Shown one piece after another: positions 35,768 to 39,012 of a stretch of 64,000 nt of DNA (its first letter is position 1; each line of letters starts with the position of its first letter). The translations under genes were made by a program, and so were the position numbers. The DNA is from Candidatus Latescibacterota bacterium (GTDB lineage Bacteria > Latescibacterota > UBA2968), in NCBI GenBank assembly GCA_965116885.1, contig OZ220741.1, positions 5,280,001 to 5,344,000 on the forward strand. The letters are read 5' to 3'. The notes below the pieces were generated by a model. It made no database searches, was not told where the DNA came from, and worked only from the letters and a program-made list of their open reading frames with translations.

Positions 35768-36337
35768 ATGTTCAACTGGCTCAAAAAACTATTCGCCCCT
35801 CCTATCGAACGCCTGCCGCAACTCGAAATGTTTCGCGATCACCTCAATGACCTACCCGAAATTCAGCAAATCACCGGTTATGACACACGCACCTATCGTT
35901 CGGGGGACGAAGCCGCCTGGTGTCGCATCATGGAAGGCAACGTGGGCAGCAACTGGACAACGGAGAAATGCCGGGCGCAATTGACCAACGACCCCCGCTT
36001 CCAGGCTGAAAACCTCTTCTTCATCACCCACAACGACGACCCCATAGCCAGCGCGTGTGCCTGGAAAACACCCGGCCAATCGCCGGAAACAGGTGAAGTT
36101 CACATGGTCGCCGCGCACGCAGACCACCGCGGCAAAGGACTCGGGCATTTGCTCAACGCCCTCGTCCTCCATCGCTTAAAAGATCTGGGCTATCAAAAAG
36201 CACATCTCAAAACCGATGACTGGCGCCTACCGGCCATCAAAACCTACCTCGACGCGGGCTTTCAGCCCCTCAATACCCACGAAAGCCACCCCGAACGCTG
36301 GGAGGCCATCTTCGCCCAGCTCAAAATAAAAAAATAA
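35768..36337 (+). CDS. GNAT family N-acetyltransferase
   Basis: Motif A HRGKGLG; AIKTYLDAGF. Confidence 0.88.
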   Translation: MFNWLKKLFAPPIERLPQLEMFRDHLNDLPEIQQITGYDTRTYRSGDEAAWCRIMEGNVGSNWTTEKCRAQLTNDPRFQAENLFFITHNDDPIASACAWKTPGQSPETGEVHMVAAHADHRGKGLGHLLNALVLHRLKDLGYQKAHLKTDDWRLPAIKTYLDAGFQPLNTHESHPERWEAIFAQLKIKK

Positions 36338-36342
36338 CCTCC

Positions 36343-37089
36343 TCATCCCATCAACGCTTTATACCCTAATCCCATCACCTCCTTGACGTGCTCCAGCGTG
36401 CGTTGCCCTTCAATACGCCCCCTCGCACCGCCCAAATTCAAAATATCGCGCACCAGATCGGGCTGTTCTTCAAAACCCTTGCGACGAATCCGAAACGGCG
36501 TCATAATCTTACTCTGGCCATCCGTACCCTTCAAGCGCGTACCATAAACGCCATCGGGAATGGGAAACACCTCGCCGTAAATCCGATTAAATCGCGCAGC
36601 CACTTCCTGCGCCAGTTCAATATGGGGTCTTTGATCTGGCCCCACTGGCACATATCGCGGACGAAAAAGCAAAATATCCGCCGCCTGAGACACCGGATAT
36701 CCCACAAAACCGTAAGGCACCCGATTCCCCAACCCCATCTTACCCATCTCTTCCTTAACCGTTGGATTCCGCAACAAACGCGGCAACGTCACCAAATTGG
36801 AAAAAATCATAGTTAACTCTGCCAATTGTGGCACCTGTGATTGCAAAAAACAAACGCTTTTTTTTGGATCAAAACCCGCCGCCAGATAATCCAGCACCAG
36901 TTCTCTGACATGATGCTCCAGGTCCTCTGTCCGATCCCGGTGCGTCGTCAGCGCCTGATAATCGGCAATCATAAAAAAACACTGAAACTCATCCTGCATC
37001 TCAAACCGATTCTTCAACGACCCGACATAATGCCCCAAATGCATTTTACCCGTCGGGCGATCACCTGTTAAAACAATTGTGCGACTCAT
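36343..37089 (-). CDS. trpS: Tryptophanyl-tRNA synthetase with in-frame internal deletion (248 aa, no KMSKS); possibly a pseudogene
   Basis: LTGDRPTGKMHLGH (HIGH), YPVSQAADIL, VPVGPDQ; GTDGQSK joins directly to IMTPFRIRR. ATG at 37089 follows AAAGGA. Confidence 0.88.
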   Translation of the reverse strand: MSRTIVLTGDRPTGKMHLGHYVGSLKNRFEMQDEFQCFFMIADYQALTTHRDRTEDLEHHVRELVLDYLAAGFDPKKSVCFLQSQVPQLAELTMIFSNLVTLPRLLRNPTVKEEMGKMGLGNRVPYGFVGYPVSQAADILLFRPRYVPVGPDQRPHIELAQEVAARFNRIYGEVFPIPDGVYGTRLKGTDGQSKIMTPFRIRRKGFEEQPDLVRDILNLGGARGRIEGQRTLEHVKEVMGLGYKALMG

Positions 37090-37111
37090 CTCTGTTCCTT
37101 TCTTTGAACGA

Positions 37112-37264
37112 TTAAAAATCCGTAATTTCCAAAAAAAAGCGCGCCACCTTCCGGTAGCGCGCGGTGCAAGCAAACAAAGATCGCCAGATATCCGGTGGTG
37201 GACATACATCTCCCATTGCGCCTGTCCACCACCAGCGTCCGCCAACATTAAACAGCTCTGTCAT
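37112..37264 (-). CDS. Trp leader peptide 2 (MTELFNVGGRWWWTGAMG..., 50 aa)
   Basis: Hand translation: TGG TGG TGG at 37234-37226, upstream of trpS. Confidence 0.65.
   Translation of the reverse strand: MTELFNVGGRWWWTGAMGDVCPPPDIWRSLFACTARYRKVARFFLEITDF
37131..37162 (-). terminator. Attenuator terminator 2 (GCGCGCTACC-GGAA-GGTGGCGCGC-T8)
   Basis: GC stem plus U-tract about 40 nt upstream of the trpS start. Confidence 0.85.
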
Positions 37265-37293
37265 CGCACTCAAAAACATCGCATACCTACCAC

Positions 37294-37325
37294 AAAAAAA
37301 CCGCCGTCAAAAAGCCGACGGCGGT
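37294..37325 (-). terminator. Attenuator terminator 1 (ACCGCCGTC..GACGGCGGT-T6)
   Basis: GC stem plus U-tract about 30 nt after the leader peptide 1 stop. Confidence 0.85.
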
Positions 37326-37356
37326 CAATTCAGAATTTTCAAATAAATACAATCCG

Positions 37357-37467
37357 TCAGCAAACCCACACAGCGGCACGCCACCAACCACGGACGGTTT
37401 CAGACACACGGGGAGCCAGCACCCTATCGGGCGTCGCATCAGTCAAAATGTGATCGTGCATAATCAT
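37357..37467 (-). CDS. Trp leader peptide 1 (MIMHDHILTDATPDRVLAPRVSETVRGWWRAAVWVC*)
   Basis: SD GGGAG; TrpL-like GWWR plus a third Trp; followed by a terminator. Confidence 0.75.
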   Translation of the reverse strand: MIMHDHILTDATPDRVLAPRVSETVRGWWRAAVWVC

Positions 37468-37495
37468 AACAAACTCCCGTAATATATCGCCGATG

Positions 37496-37524
37496 AAAAT
37501 AACGACTTCCACACCTCGTGTCAA
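37496..37524 (-). promoter_or_regulatory. Putative sigma70 promoter of the trpS leader (TTGACA-N17-TATTTT)
   Basis: Read on the reverse strand, about 30 nt upstream of the leader 1 ATG. Confidence 0.65.
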
Positions 37525-37539
37525 GCCGTTTGATCTTCT

Positions 37540-39012
37540 TTAGCTCACGAACCGGAACGAATAGAGCTTTGCCGACCGCATCACGACGCGAAGCCGCAGC
37601 GGTCCCCGATCCGTGGGGATCCGGCGGCCGGCCCCCTGCCACGACACGCCTGCCTTGATTGCATTGGCGACAATCGTCTCGCACGTCTTCAGCGTGTAGC
37701 CTTCCACGGGGCGTCCCTCCTCGTCCTGCAGCTCGACCAGCAGCCAGCCGCCCCCGCCACAATCTACATTCAACTCAAGCGCCTGACCGTCGAACGTCAG
37801 CGGCGGTGTCACAAACTCTCCGCCAGAGAGAGACGCATCCGCCGAGACAAAACCGTCCCGCCTCAGGATCGCCCGAAACAGACCGGTATTCCAACCGTCG
37901 CGCACCTCATCATTGTGCCGACTGCCCCTCCCCGAATAGTAGATCCACATCTCGGTCTCGGTAAGCACGGGCCAGACATTGGCCATCACCATACCACCCG
38001 ATGGCCCCCCATCCAGCCCCCGGCGGATAAACGGCTCCCGGTCGCCCTGACGCGACCATATAACCCCATCACGGCTCGTGAGGAGCCGGACGTCCATCGT
38101 GGCCGGAAAATCGGATGCCTCCCAGTGGTAATAAGCGGCCGGCATCATAAAGTACGCATCATCCGCCTCGGGATGTTTGTAAACCGCATTCGTGTAGTAA
38201 TCGATCTGCGGCCTGTCCATTGACCGGGGAGGCAGAGGAGCTTCCAGATCCAGCGCATCCCCCTCCAGGACGATCAGCGTGGGCTGCGACCAGGTCTTAA
38301 AGTCAGGCGACGTGATCCGGCCAACGGACCGGTACCGCTTTCCGAGCTTCATTTCCGCCGCCTCGTCCCGTCGCTGGGTCTCGTGTACCCGCGTATAGCC
38401 GACGTAGAGATCCAGTCTGTCATCCCAGAAGAAAACATTCTGGGTGTCGCACATCTGGTCGGGCGGATTCGGCTGGCCCTCATCATACGTCCAATGGATC
38501 CCGTCGGGTGAATGCATAGCCCAAAGCCCCGGCTGAACACCGGCCTCGATCTCATCATCCCTGGGATAGTACTTCGACCAGAGTCGGTAGCGCGAATCGG
38601 CGGGCGCGCGCTCGTCTATATAGACCGTCGCACCCTGCATGCTCTGACGCTCATCCAGCGGGGCGACGATATTGTTCGCCGTGCTGCCCTGGAACGTGAC
38701 GAGGTGCATTTCCGGCTTCTGCCAGGAAACCCCGTCTTCGGACTCCGCATAGCAGAGACGAACCGCCCCTTCCTGCGGACCGCCCGATTTCATCTGTGCG
38801 CCGTACCAGAGCCGAAAGTGCCGCTCCCCTTCCCGGATCACCGTGTTGTACGCCCCAATCCCGAGCTTCTCCCACGGCTTGTCCGCCCGGAGCACAGGCT
38901 CGGGGGACTGCAAAGGCGGGTTCATACGGAGATTGACACCAGAGACCCGATCAAAGAAACGCGTGTCGATAAAAAGCTGCTTCCGGTTCCCGACATGGAC
39001 TGTAGCGACCAT
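37540..39012 (-). CDS. Hypothetical glycosidase-like beta-propeller protein
   Basis: Asp-box-like repeats SEDGVSW, SPDGIHW, SPDFKTW, SRDGVIW; C-terminal LRRDGFVS..KLYSF module. Confidence 0.6.
   Translation of the reverse strand: MVATVHVGNRKQLFIDTRFFDRVSGVNLRMNPPLQSPEPVLRADKPWEKLGIGAYNTVIREGERHFRLWYGAQMKSGGPQEGAVRLCYAESEDGVSWQKPEMHLVTFQGSTANNIVAPLDERQSMQGATVYIDERAPADSRYRLWSKYYPRDDEIEAGVQPGLWAMHSPDGIHWTYDEGQPNPPDQMCDTQNVFFWDDRLDLYVGYTRVHETQRRDEAAEMKLGKRYRSVGRITSPDFKTWSQPTLIVLEGDALDLEAPLPPRSMDRPQIDYYTNAVYKHPEADDAYFMMPAAYYHWEASDFPATMDVRLLTSRDGVIWSRQGDREPFIRRGLDGGPSGGMVMANVWPVLTETEMWIYYSGRGSRHNDEVRDGWNTGLFRAILRRDGFVSADASLSGGEFVTPPLTFDGQALELNVDCGGGGWLLVELQDEEGRPVEGYTLKTCETIVANAIKAGVSWQGAGRRIPTDRGPLRLRVVMRSAKLYSFRFVS

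Follow-up and report, generated by a model that had tools for sequence, protein, structure and literature searches.

Why would one gene stand behind two tryptophan attenuators, and what does that gene encode? The question is raised by the trpS2 locus of Candidatus Latescibacterota bacterium (assembly GCA_965116885.1), which lies in a stretch of 64,000 nucleotides of contig OZ220741.1 (positions 5,280,001 to 5,344,000), here called the window. trpS2 is an auxiliary paralogue of trpS, the gene of tryptophanyl-tRNA synthetase (TrpRS). Gene regulation counts leader-peptide attenuation among its founding examples, and descriptions normally give each operon a single attenuator. Here, the anatomy of the locus and its recurrence in relatives suggest that two ribosome-mediated, Trp-codon-dependent attenuators probably act in series before trpS2. 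The initial annotation of this DNA, made from its letters alone, had proposed two dissimilar leader-peptide attenuators in series behind one promoter, and comparison sustains that proposal: the Trp runs, the terminators and the alternative pairings are all conserved in relatives.

Layout of the locus

One promoter is followed by two leader-peptide units, each with its own terminator, and then by the auxiliary trpS paralogue; all locus coordinates are window positions, and the features are read on the minus strand (Table 1). A motif, AAACGGCTTGAC, precedes the promoter and is kept in relatives. In a consensus scan this promoter is the sole promoter-like site upstream of trpS2 on the minus strand: the other two minus-strand matches fall within the trpS2 open reading frame (ORF), and the scan finds no site between the units (37294 to 37279). 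Only 14 nucleotides separate the T run of terminator 1 from the ATG of leader 2 in the window, so that trpS2 transcripts would have to traverse unit 1. An AGGA site lies ahead of the trpS2 ATG at 37089. The promoter, leader 1, terminator 1, leader 2 with its hairpin, terminator 2 and the gene ATG all lie where the initial annotation had placed them on the minus strand, and one detail is revised: leader 2, there begun at MTELF, most likely starts at the conserved ATG at 37279 (MFLSAM..).

Table 1. Features of the trpS2 locus, in the order of the minus strand
Feature	Position	Strand	Sequence or content	Basis or remark
Promoter, sigma-70 type	37496..37524	-	TTGACA-17 nt-TATTTT	Consensus scan, 10/12 matches
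Leader peptide 1 ORF	37357..37467	-	36 amino acids, MIMHDHILTDATPDRVLAPRVSETVRGWWRAAVWVC	ORF calling and homologous leaders
Segment 1	37393..37397	-	CCGTC, directly 5' of the Trp codons	Can pair with GACGG of segment 2
Leader 1 Trp codons	37386-37381 (adjacent pair) and 37368-37366 (third, five codons on)	-		
Segment 2	37354..37361	-	GCTGACGG, antiterminator strand	Overlaps leader 1 stop
Leader 1 stop	37359-37357	-	TGA	Inside segment 2
Terminator 1	37294..37326 (stem 37326-37299, T run to 37294)	-	Stem ACCGCCGTC / GACGGCGGT + T7	Terminator scan
Segment 3	37321-37314	-	CCGTCGGC	5' arm of terminator 1
Leader peptide 2 ORF	37112..37279	-	55 amino acids, MFLSAMTELFNVGGRWWWTGAMGDVCPPPDIW.., MFLSAMTELFNVGGRWWWTG..CPPPD..	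Runs through terminator 2 to TAA 37114-37112
Segment A	37223..37235	-	CTGGTGGTGGACA	Holds three Trp codons (37234-37226)
Segment B	37192..37204	-	TGTCCACCACCGG	Complement of the Trp run; in-frame Pro-Pro-Pro at 37201-37193
Terminator 2	37131..37162 (hairpin 37162-37139)	-	GCGCGCTACC GGAA GGTGGCGCGC + T8	Terminator scan
Terminator 2 apex	37154-37144	-	CCGGAAGGTGG	Complementary to B
trpS2-delta	36343..37089	-	248 amino acids, auxiliary TrpRS paralogue	HIGH present; deletion junction ~36507-36505

Unit 1: a leader of the trpL type

Leader 1 has a GGGAG ribosome-binding site 8 nucleotides before its ATG, and the RNA of segment 2 (GCUGACGG) is complementary to that of the terminator 1 5' arm (CCGUCGGC). 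All 25 aligned loci, which represent four genera, have a leader with two or three adjacent Trp codons (WW or WWW), a segment 2 and a terminator 1, and in every one of the 25 the leader stop lies within the segment complementary to the terminator 5' arm. Other genera have GGCCAACCG or GGCCGAC as segment 2, with CGGUUGCCC or GUCGGCC in the terminator 5' arm and loop; the sequence and register of the two elements have changed together between genera. Leader 1 is 33-42 amino acids long across relatives; its N-terminal part is fairly conserved, with a pattern, H..TD.AT....V..VS..V.GWW, common to two genera.

The alternative pairings are conserved too. Across the 25 sequences 99.1% of cells are paired in terminator 1, against 13-75% with a slid partner, and two pairs have changed on both sides. 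The predicted antiterminator, formed by segments 2 and 3 (2:3), is paired in 96.5% of cells, against 13-71% when slid, with one compensatory C-G to U-A change (in L043) and two pairs showing one-sided changes that keep the pair. Its duplex energy is -10.9 to -18.2 kcal/mol in 25/25 loci and lies 2-7 kcal/mol (mostly 4-7) below that of a shuffled segment 2. The pairing of segments 1 and 2 (1:2, CCGUC:GACGG), with a duplex energy of -9.9 to -21.6 kcal/mol in the 25 sequences, is the weakest of the proposed pairings. In folds of the nascent RNA ending at the terminator loop, 2:3 forms with the ribosome on either Trp codon; with the ribosome at the leader 1 stop, segment 2 is masked and 2:3 cannot form. 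By its anatomy and conservation, unit 1 appears to be a textbook trpL-type attenuator.

Unit 2: a Trp-codon hairpin mirrored in a terminator

In unit 2 the Trp codons would themselves be part of the switch. GGTGGTGGACA pairs perfectly with TGTCCACCACC, which gives a 13-bp hairpin of the three Trp codons with TGTCCACCACCGG; as RNA, segment A is GGUGGUGG and segment B CCACCACC. The unit 2 fold contains this A:B hairpin together with the terminator and is well below shuffled sequences in energy (z = -4.75). B has an alternative partner in the apex of terminator 2, CCGG-AA-GGUGG, and the neighbouring UGGCG has a possible partner in CGCUA of the 5' arm.

The start codon of leader 2, the Trp run and the Pro-Pro-Pro (PPP) are all conserved in relatives. 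The ribosome-binding site contains AGG in the window and reads GGAGGA or AGGAG in relatives. Two to four adjacent Trp codons (WW, WWW or WWWW) occur in the unit 2 leaders of 32/32 loci, and PPP is in frame on B in 31 of them, the remaining one (L025) having PQP. Across genera, PPP lies 42, 39 or 36 nucleotides from the Trp run, always at a multiple of three and always in frame. Past ..WRSLF, the reading frame differs between close relatives, and this part of leader 2 is therefore unconstrained as protein. The terminator 2 apex hardly varies across the order; the base of its stem does vary, with compensation.

Free folds contain A:B in 29/32 loci and the terminator in 31/32. When a ribosome is placed on the final W and the RNA is cut off at the apex, the B:apex pairing forms in 25/32 loci, against 8% of controls, in which the region between ribosome and terminator was shuffled. 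Counts for the named structures were taken from an unfitted alignment with 25 re-aligned rows (A2): A:B and terminator 2 are paired in 90.2% of cells, against 33-53% when slid, with four pairs changed on both sides, and the unit 2 antiterminator in 96.9%, against 29-56%, with one such pair. RNAalifold on the first MAFFT alignment, in which eight rows were shifted by 3 nucleotides, missed the A:B helix and was discarded. In L086, B is CCGCCUCCGG and the apex CCUGGAGGUGG, which form a continuous helix of 10 bp.

Unit 2 would then be a variant of the attenuator, its putative antiterminator partner being the terminator apex and 3' arm, not the 5' arm alone. The initial annotation had classed both units as TrpL-type, which fits unit 1, with its UGA inside segment 2; unit 2, with no stop before the terminator and its partner in the apex and 3' arm, departs from the plain TrpL scheme.

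How the two units may act

From the single promoter a leader of about 400 nucleotides would be transcribed, and polymerase would have to pass both intrinsic terminators to reach trpS2. At low charged tRNA-Trp, a ribosome stalled at WW of unit 1 would cover segment 1, and the freed segment 2 would pair with the terminator 1 5' arm, so that transcription continues; with sufficient Trp, the ribosome at UGA would mask segment 2 and terminator 1 would form. In unit 2, a ribosome on A at low charged tRNA-Trp would free B, which would pair with the apex, aided by UGGCG:CGCUA, and pre-empt terminator 2. With sufficient Trp the ribosome would move onto B, where the in-frame PPP may hold it while the terminator forms; PPP would slow the ribosome at this point and may serve as a substitute for a leader stop codon. 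Polyproline stalling is linked to elongation factor P (EF-P). Net read-through would be the product of the two units, giving a low basal level and a steeper rise as charged tRNA-Trp falls. This attenuation reading is well supported by anatomy and comparison; it is by inference that we assign to the locus a dependence on Trp, to the switch a direction, to PPP a role and to the tandem a benefit.

Several observations weigh against it. The whole fold of unit 1 is no better than shuffles (z = -0.5), and support for unit 1 comes from conservation, not from folding energy. The per-sequence shuffle p for 2:3 is only 0.006-0.26. The 2:3 pairing is also present in the free nascent fold of unit 1, which makes 1:2 a weak anti-antiterminator. 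The leader 2 stop lies beyond terminator 2 in all 23 loci examined (in about half of them the ORF ends at or overlaps the trpS2 start), and, because no stop precedes the terminator, terminated unit 2 transcripts would be non-stop mRNAs. A permissive Rfam scan of 36000-38500 yields nothing that reaches its gathering score: Trp_leader (RF00513) scores 20.1 bits on unit 1, against a gathering score of 41, and has no match on unit 2.

Covariation adds little in either unit. Double changes are few (one in A:B, one per antiterminator, two to three per terminator), covariation being thin because the sequences barely vary, and pair-type counts are not above shuffle controls. The conservation of A:B is partly due to coding, because a Trp codon cannot vary. 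Conservation of the Trp runs, which the initial annotation had named as a check together with stem covariation, is complete (25/25 loci in unit 1 and 32/32 in unit 2), and the covariation is sparse; the proposed pairings are supported by conservation more than by covariation. Finally, full-length constrained folds always keep the terminators, which have the lowest energy; because the terminator always wins there, the switch would have to be kinetic. Full-length folds do not discriminate between states, and nascent-length folds were used instead. The terminator of Escherichia coli trpL is likewise its most stable structure, and the choice there is kinetic.

Distribution and age of the two units

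The search covered 41 related genomes, then 53 of the order, then 168 of the phylum, and one metagenome scan. Both units are present in 27 loci: in 24 they are in direct tandem, and in three coding material lies between them. They are found in 21/21 genomes of the genus, the window's genome included, and beyond it in L025 and L026 (one each, in two genera), in L043 and L044 (a fourth genus) and on the metagenome contigs L094 and L097. Since the same parts recur in all 21 genomes of the genus and in other genera, the locus is more than a chance assembly. Unit 2 reaches further, with 32 aligned loci from eight genera and two families and two metagenome contigs, always directly upstream of a trpS2 paralogue; in seven more distant loci of four other genera (L047, L059, L068, L029 and L086-L088) it occurs without unit 1. 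Because unit 2 alone serves these more distant loci, it looks like the older element and unit 1 like a later addition within one family. In the second family of the order (L059, L029, L086-L088), the housekeeping trpS is followed immediately by a shortened or degenerate trpS2, with unit 2 alone between the two.

A strict motif, TGGTGGTGG-N18-28-CCACCACCG, has 24 matches in the 168 phylum genomes, of which 21 are this leader and three are chance matches in coding DNA. In the metagenome pattern scan two of 14 matches are real, the other 12 being chance matches in GC-rich coding DNA. A crude scan of the window's genome for a short ORF with WW and a terminator gave 13 candidates, among which only the two units described here looked real. 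Five of the 11 further candidates were inspected and none precedes a Trp-related gene; a WW mini-ORF at G000 ~1108527 (+), outside the window, overlaps a tRNA-like sequence and is a false positive.

In the genus, units 1 and 2 have (2,3) adjacent Trp codons in 15 genomes, (3,2) in five and (3,3) in one. A single origin is likely for the five (3,2) cases, because four of them also share a spacer insert; the loss of a Trp codon in unit 2 where one is gained in unit 1 is suggestive of a trade-off, one and not five. A repeat of ~70-85 nucleotides (ATCGCGGATGG..CGCGGAACCCTTCC..AAACAACCTTTTTTGA) is found in different genomes immediately behind one of the two terminators: after terminator 1 in L007, L012, L019 and L020, and after terminator 2 in L043 and in a relative represented by an RNA-library contig (X17). 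Its appearance is that of a small mobile insert with terminator ends as its targets.

A selected tandem or a remnant

The presence of coding material between the units in three relatives is a further point against a selected series, as the tandem may be a matter of history. Unit 1 could be the attenuator of a gene that once stood, or still stands, between the units, and the tandem could have arisen by loss of that gene; both units might still terminate, with no selected function for the series. The layouts that suggest this are various. In L025, of another genus, unit 1 is followed by a 144-amino-acid DUF2087 gene (Pfam E 8e-16), then by unit 2 and trpS2; in L043, a 127-amino-acid ORF, tautomerase-like in appearance by eye, lies between the units, with a terminator-1-like sequence and a DUF2087 remnant further upstream; in L094 the inter-unit sequence is, by eye, an ECF-sigma-like fragment. 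Spacers of 40 to ~270 nucleotides, apparently non-coding inserts after terminator 1 and longest in L023, separate the units in 8/21 genomes of the genus, and the seven distant loci show that unit 2 alone can serve trpS2.

The same loci also speak for the opposite course of events. The three inserts are unrelated to one another, which fits insertions into an existing tandem better than the loss of one gene, and L044 and L097 carry a DUF2087 gene upstream of the promoter, with their units directly in tandem. The initial annotation had held that a gene between the units in relatives would make the pair a deletion remnant: such a gene or fragment is found in 3/27 loci, whereas in the 24 direct tandems both units are whole, and of unit 1 the leader ORF, the Trp codons, segment 2 and the terminator all remain. 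This intactness holds up to a gene divergence of dS 0.78 (dS, synonymous substitutions per site), by which a useless remnant should have decayed, and argues that each unit is under selection. The sequence comparison thus favours occasional interruption of an existing tandem over the loss of a single gene. An unselected remnant is rather unlikely; the tandem as a selected design is plausible, not secured.

Sign of unit 2 and independence of unit 1

Unit 2 might work with the opposite sign, as in pyrBI: with plentiful Trp, a ribosome closely following polymerase would melt terminator 2, and a stall at WWW would uncouple the two and let the terminator form. The absence of a leader 2 stop before terminator 2, together with the ORFs that extend to the trpS2 start, agrees with such a scheme, as does the observation that the terminator beats B:apex in energy even with A masked. 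Yet it has no role for the conserved A:B complementarity or for the apex that matches B, it leaves the joint change of B and apex in L086 without explanation, and the ribosome should already be slowed by PPP on B, well ahead of the terminator. Coupled to a classical unit 1, it would also make expression depend on opposite signals. This scheme is improbable.

Slightly more improbable still is that unit 1 is an independent small gene, for a 36-amino-acid peptide or a short RNA, with a terminator of its own, leaving unit 2 alone in control of trpS2. Leader 1 is long for a leader peptide, its N-terminal part is conserved to the point of a pattern shared by two genera, and the unit folds no better than shuffles, all of which such a gene would account for. 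It would not account for a stop placed inside the terminator-complementary segment in all 25 loci, with register and sequence co-changing between genera, and no promoter-like site follows terminator 1 from which trpS2 could be transcribed separately. Two attenuators in series, both opened by low charged tRNA-Trp, are the reading carried forward here.

The regulated gene: a shortened TrpRS paralogue

The regulated gene is the more surprising part of the locus. The window's genome, one contig of 5.56 Mb, encodes a tyrosyl-tRNA synthetase (TyrRS) and a 355-amino-acid TrpRS elsewhere, in addition to trpS2. The initial annotation had named the downstream gene simply trpS; it is instead an internally deleted auxiliary paralogue of 248 amino acids. 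Over residues 1-195 this protein shares 49% identity with the housekeeping TrpRS, from which it diverges at ..GTDGQSK. Alignment with relatives indicates that 84 amino acids were lost in frame, from KMGKS to just before MTPFRIRR (residues ~196-279 of the full-length protein), the window sequence reading ..GQSK-I-MTPF.. in place of KMGKS and the ~84 residues. The deleted region includes a C-x20-C-x6-C-x2-C motif, which may bind an iron-sulfur cluster, as in the Thermotoga maritima enzyme. The family profiles match only the front of the protein: TIGR00233 at 192.7 bits (cut-off 176.75) over profile positions 2-187 of 328, and PF00579, the class I Trp and Tyr synthetase family, over positions 5-198 of 292. 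The HIGH signature is present as TGKMHLGH. The KMSKS loop and the helical anticodon-binding part are absent from the aligned window protein, and for this reason it is not filed as an active TrpRS.

The shortening is recurrent. Within the genus 11/21 genomes have a shortened trpS2 and 10/21 a full-length one (330-332 amino acids). Three in-frame deletions are distinguished, of 252 nucleotides in nine genomes, of 261 in L013 and of a different 261 in L014, so that at least three arose independently. The L013 deletion lies between GCGTTG repeats; long direct repeats were considered as the cause of the recurrent 252-nucleotide deletion and rejected, as only 1-2 nucleotides of microhomology are present. 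HIGH is altered in two of the 11 shortened proteins of the genus (H to Y in L005, G to E in L011) and in none of 12 full-length ones, and in the shortened protein of L014 the residue just after the HIGH motif is changed (HLGHD). Shortened forms also occur in other genera and in a protein collection: P0029 and P0032 keep KMGKS and have lost ~59 amino acids around the Cys motif, and L068, L029 and P0042 have lost HIGH as well. The attenuator is kept by all the shortened or degenerate forms noted. In L094, trpS2 has a gap of ~42 amino acids (residues 69-110) with a frame change, which may mark a pseudogene or an error of assembly.

The gene tree of the shared part mixes 248- and 332-amino-acid alleles (L004/L015), and L010 and L017 group at 95% support. 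A single clean origin of the 248-amino-acid allele, unsupported by this mixed tree, was set aside; the mixing suggests that the deletion allele may have moved by recombination between species or persisted as a long-lived polymorphism.

The shortened gene shows the marks of constraint. Over 236 shared codons, the ratio of nonsynonymous to synonymous substitution rates (dN/dS) is 0.105 for the shortened alleles (28 pairs, dS 0.19) and 0.099 for the full-length ones, with 0.101 between the two classes, and none of the 11 shortened genes of the genus has a stop or a frameshift. The AlphaFold2 model of the 248-amino-acid form is compact, with a mean confidence (pLDDT) of 87.1 and a predicted TM-score (pTM) of 0.85, unsure only at residues 184-192, the junction; compared with TrpRS structures it has a TM-score of 0.84-0.88 by query length. 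The dN/dS values and the predicted fold are evidence that the shortened trpS2 may still be functional. A decaying locus, with a dispensable second trpS turned pseudogene and a fossil leader, is highly improbable, for although KMSKS and about a quarter of the length are gone, HIGH is lost in L068, L029 and P0042, and L094 may carry a frameshift, the shortened alleles have the dN/dS of full-length ones, 11/11 shortened genes of the genus are open with all three deletions multiples of three, the modelled fold is compact (pLDDT 87.1), and the leader is undamaged in each of these genomes.

Both halves of the locus can be joined in one tentative proposal: a selected double lock that reads the same signal twice, with a new architecture in unit 2, controlling a trpS2 that has repeatedly been turned into a non-catalytic mini-TrpRS. 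In such a lock the Trp run would be the anti-antiterminator, its complement would encode a PPP brake that replaces the stop, and the apex would mimic the Trp codons. A protein that lacks KMSKS and the anticodon domain, is under purifying selection and would be induced by Trp limitation would point to a non-catalytic role, as a binder of Trp or of an inhibitor, or as a partner or regulatory subunit after the manner of HisZ, which derives from HisRS.

Surroundings, metagenomes and RNA libraries

A 490-amino-acid ORF at 37540-39012 (-), directly upstream of the promoter, matched no Pfam or NCBIfam family, and no terminator lies between it and the leader promoter. Rfam matches to NmsRb, STnc240 and Hrs13 within 36000-38500 were rejected as terminator look-alikes. 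At least half of the sampled words of the window stretch are present in eight sequencing runs from several studies, six of them labelled sponge metagenome; the best-matching runs may be the source sample itself.

RNA-library data consist of assembled contigs, which cannot reveal transcript 3' ends and may include DNA carry-over. Contigs of runs X15 and X16, of one study, lie on the trpS2 ORF and bridge the deletion junction; they show the allele in these libraries, not its transcription. A contig of run X17 lies on unit 2 and comes from a relative with the full-length trpS2 allele, and for the window's own form none of the RNA-library contigs runs from the leader into the gene.

Significance

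As a pair conserved in nature, two attenuators for one amino acid would offer a direct test of whether attenuators in series sharpen and tighten a response, as has been proposed for tandem riboswitches. Unit 2 suggests a design rule, namely a codon run, its complement and a mimic of the run in the terminator, and hints that polyproline stalling may stand in for a stop codon. In trpS2, the catalytic loop and the tRNA-anticodon part have been lost several times while selection persists under a putative Trp control, which suggests an unrecognised, non-canonical function of a synthetase fragment in sponge-associated bacteria.

Comparison with known systems

The mechanism of E. coli trpL, with its leader of 14 amino acids, is the textbook case of attenuation. 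Unit 1 is like it in having a short ORF with adjacent Trp codons and a stop at segment 2, the 1:2, 2:3 and 3:4 pairings, and a GC-rich terminator with a U tract; it differs in its 36-amino-acid leader, in standing before a synthetase paralogue and not before biosynthetic genes, and in being followed by a second attenuator. Unit 2 is closer in layout to E. coli pyrBI, where the leader ORF likewise runs through the terminator. pyrBI senses UTP through polymerase pausing and has neither a regulatory codon run nor a codon-complement hairpin, whereas unit 2 has both a Trp codon run and such a hairpin.

Among solved structures, the closest relatives of the full-length trpS2 product (E 1e-83 to 8e-85) are Deinococcus radiodurans TrpRS II (1yi8, 2a4m) and the enzymes of T. 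maritima (2g36) and Chlamydia trachomatis (6ncr); unlike these, the window protein lacks KMSKS and residues ~196-279 of full-length trpS2. The second TrpRS of Streptomyces has a role in indolmycin resistance. Classical single attenuators have been predicted before trpS or trpS2 in Streptomyces (Seliverstov et al., 2005; PMC1262725), and as described in the excerpt of that paper they resemble the present locus in having a leader peptide with UGG repeats before a second TrpRS gene. They belong to another phylum and precede a full-length enzyme, each as a single attenuator, and the excerpt makes no mention of a tandem. The literature searched, including an excerpt of PMC5388404, contained no bacterial TrpRS paralogue without KMSKS. 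Hetero-oligomers formed by duplicated synthetases are the subject of PMC4787780.

Tandem attenuators have been described in the Salmonella mgtCBR leader, where they sense ATP and proline (Lee and Groisman, 2012; PMC3641672). In the portion of the paper available, mgtCBR is called "a singular example", as "normally, a single attenuator" is used, and is contrasted with a leader having two intrinsic terminators; the metE tandem riboswitch is cited there as well. As far as that portion goes, mgtCBR is like the trpS2 leader in having two short ORFs that are translated within the same leader and that each govern alternative RNA structures deciding on elongation into the coding region, and differs in that its attenuators respond to two different signals, whereas here both units would read Trp codons, each with its own intrinsic terminator. 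The initial annotation had regarded tandem leader-peptide attenuators as unfamiliar, and no tandem for one amino acid appeared in the literature searched, which omits most subscription journals. A preprint on MsrD mentions "two attenuators". Tandem T-boxes exist. Together with tandem riboswitches they share with the trpS2 leader the arrangement of complete units in series, each with its own terminator and with a multiplicative output; they differ from it in that the RNA senses its ligand or tRNA directly, whereas here the sensing would be done by ribosomes stalling on leader peptides.

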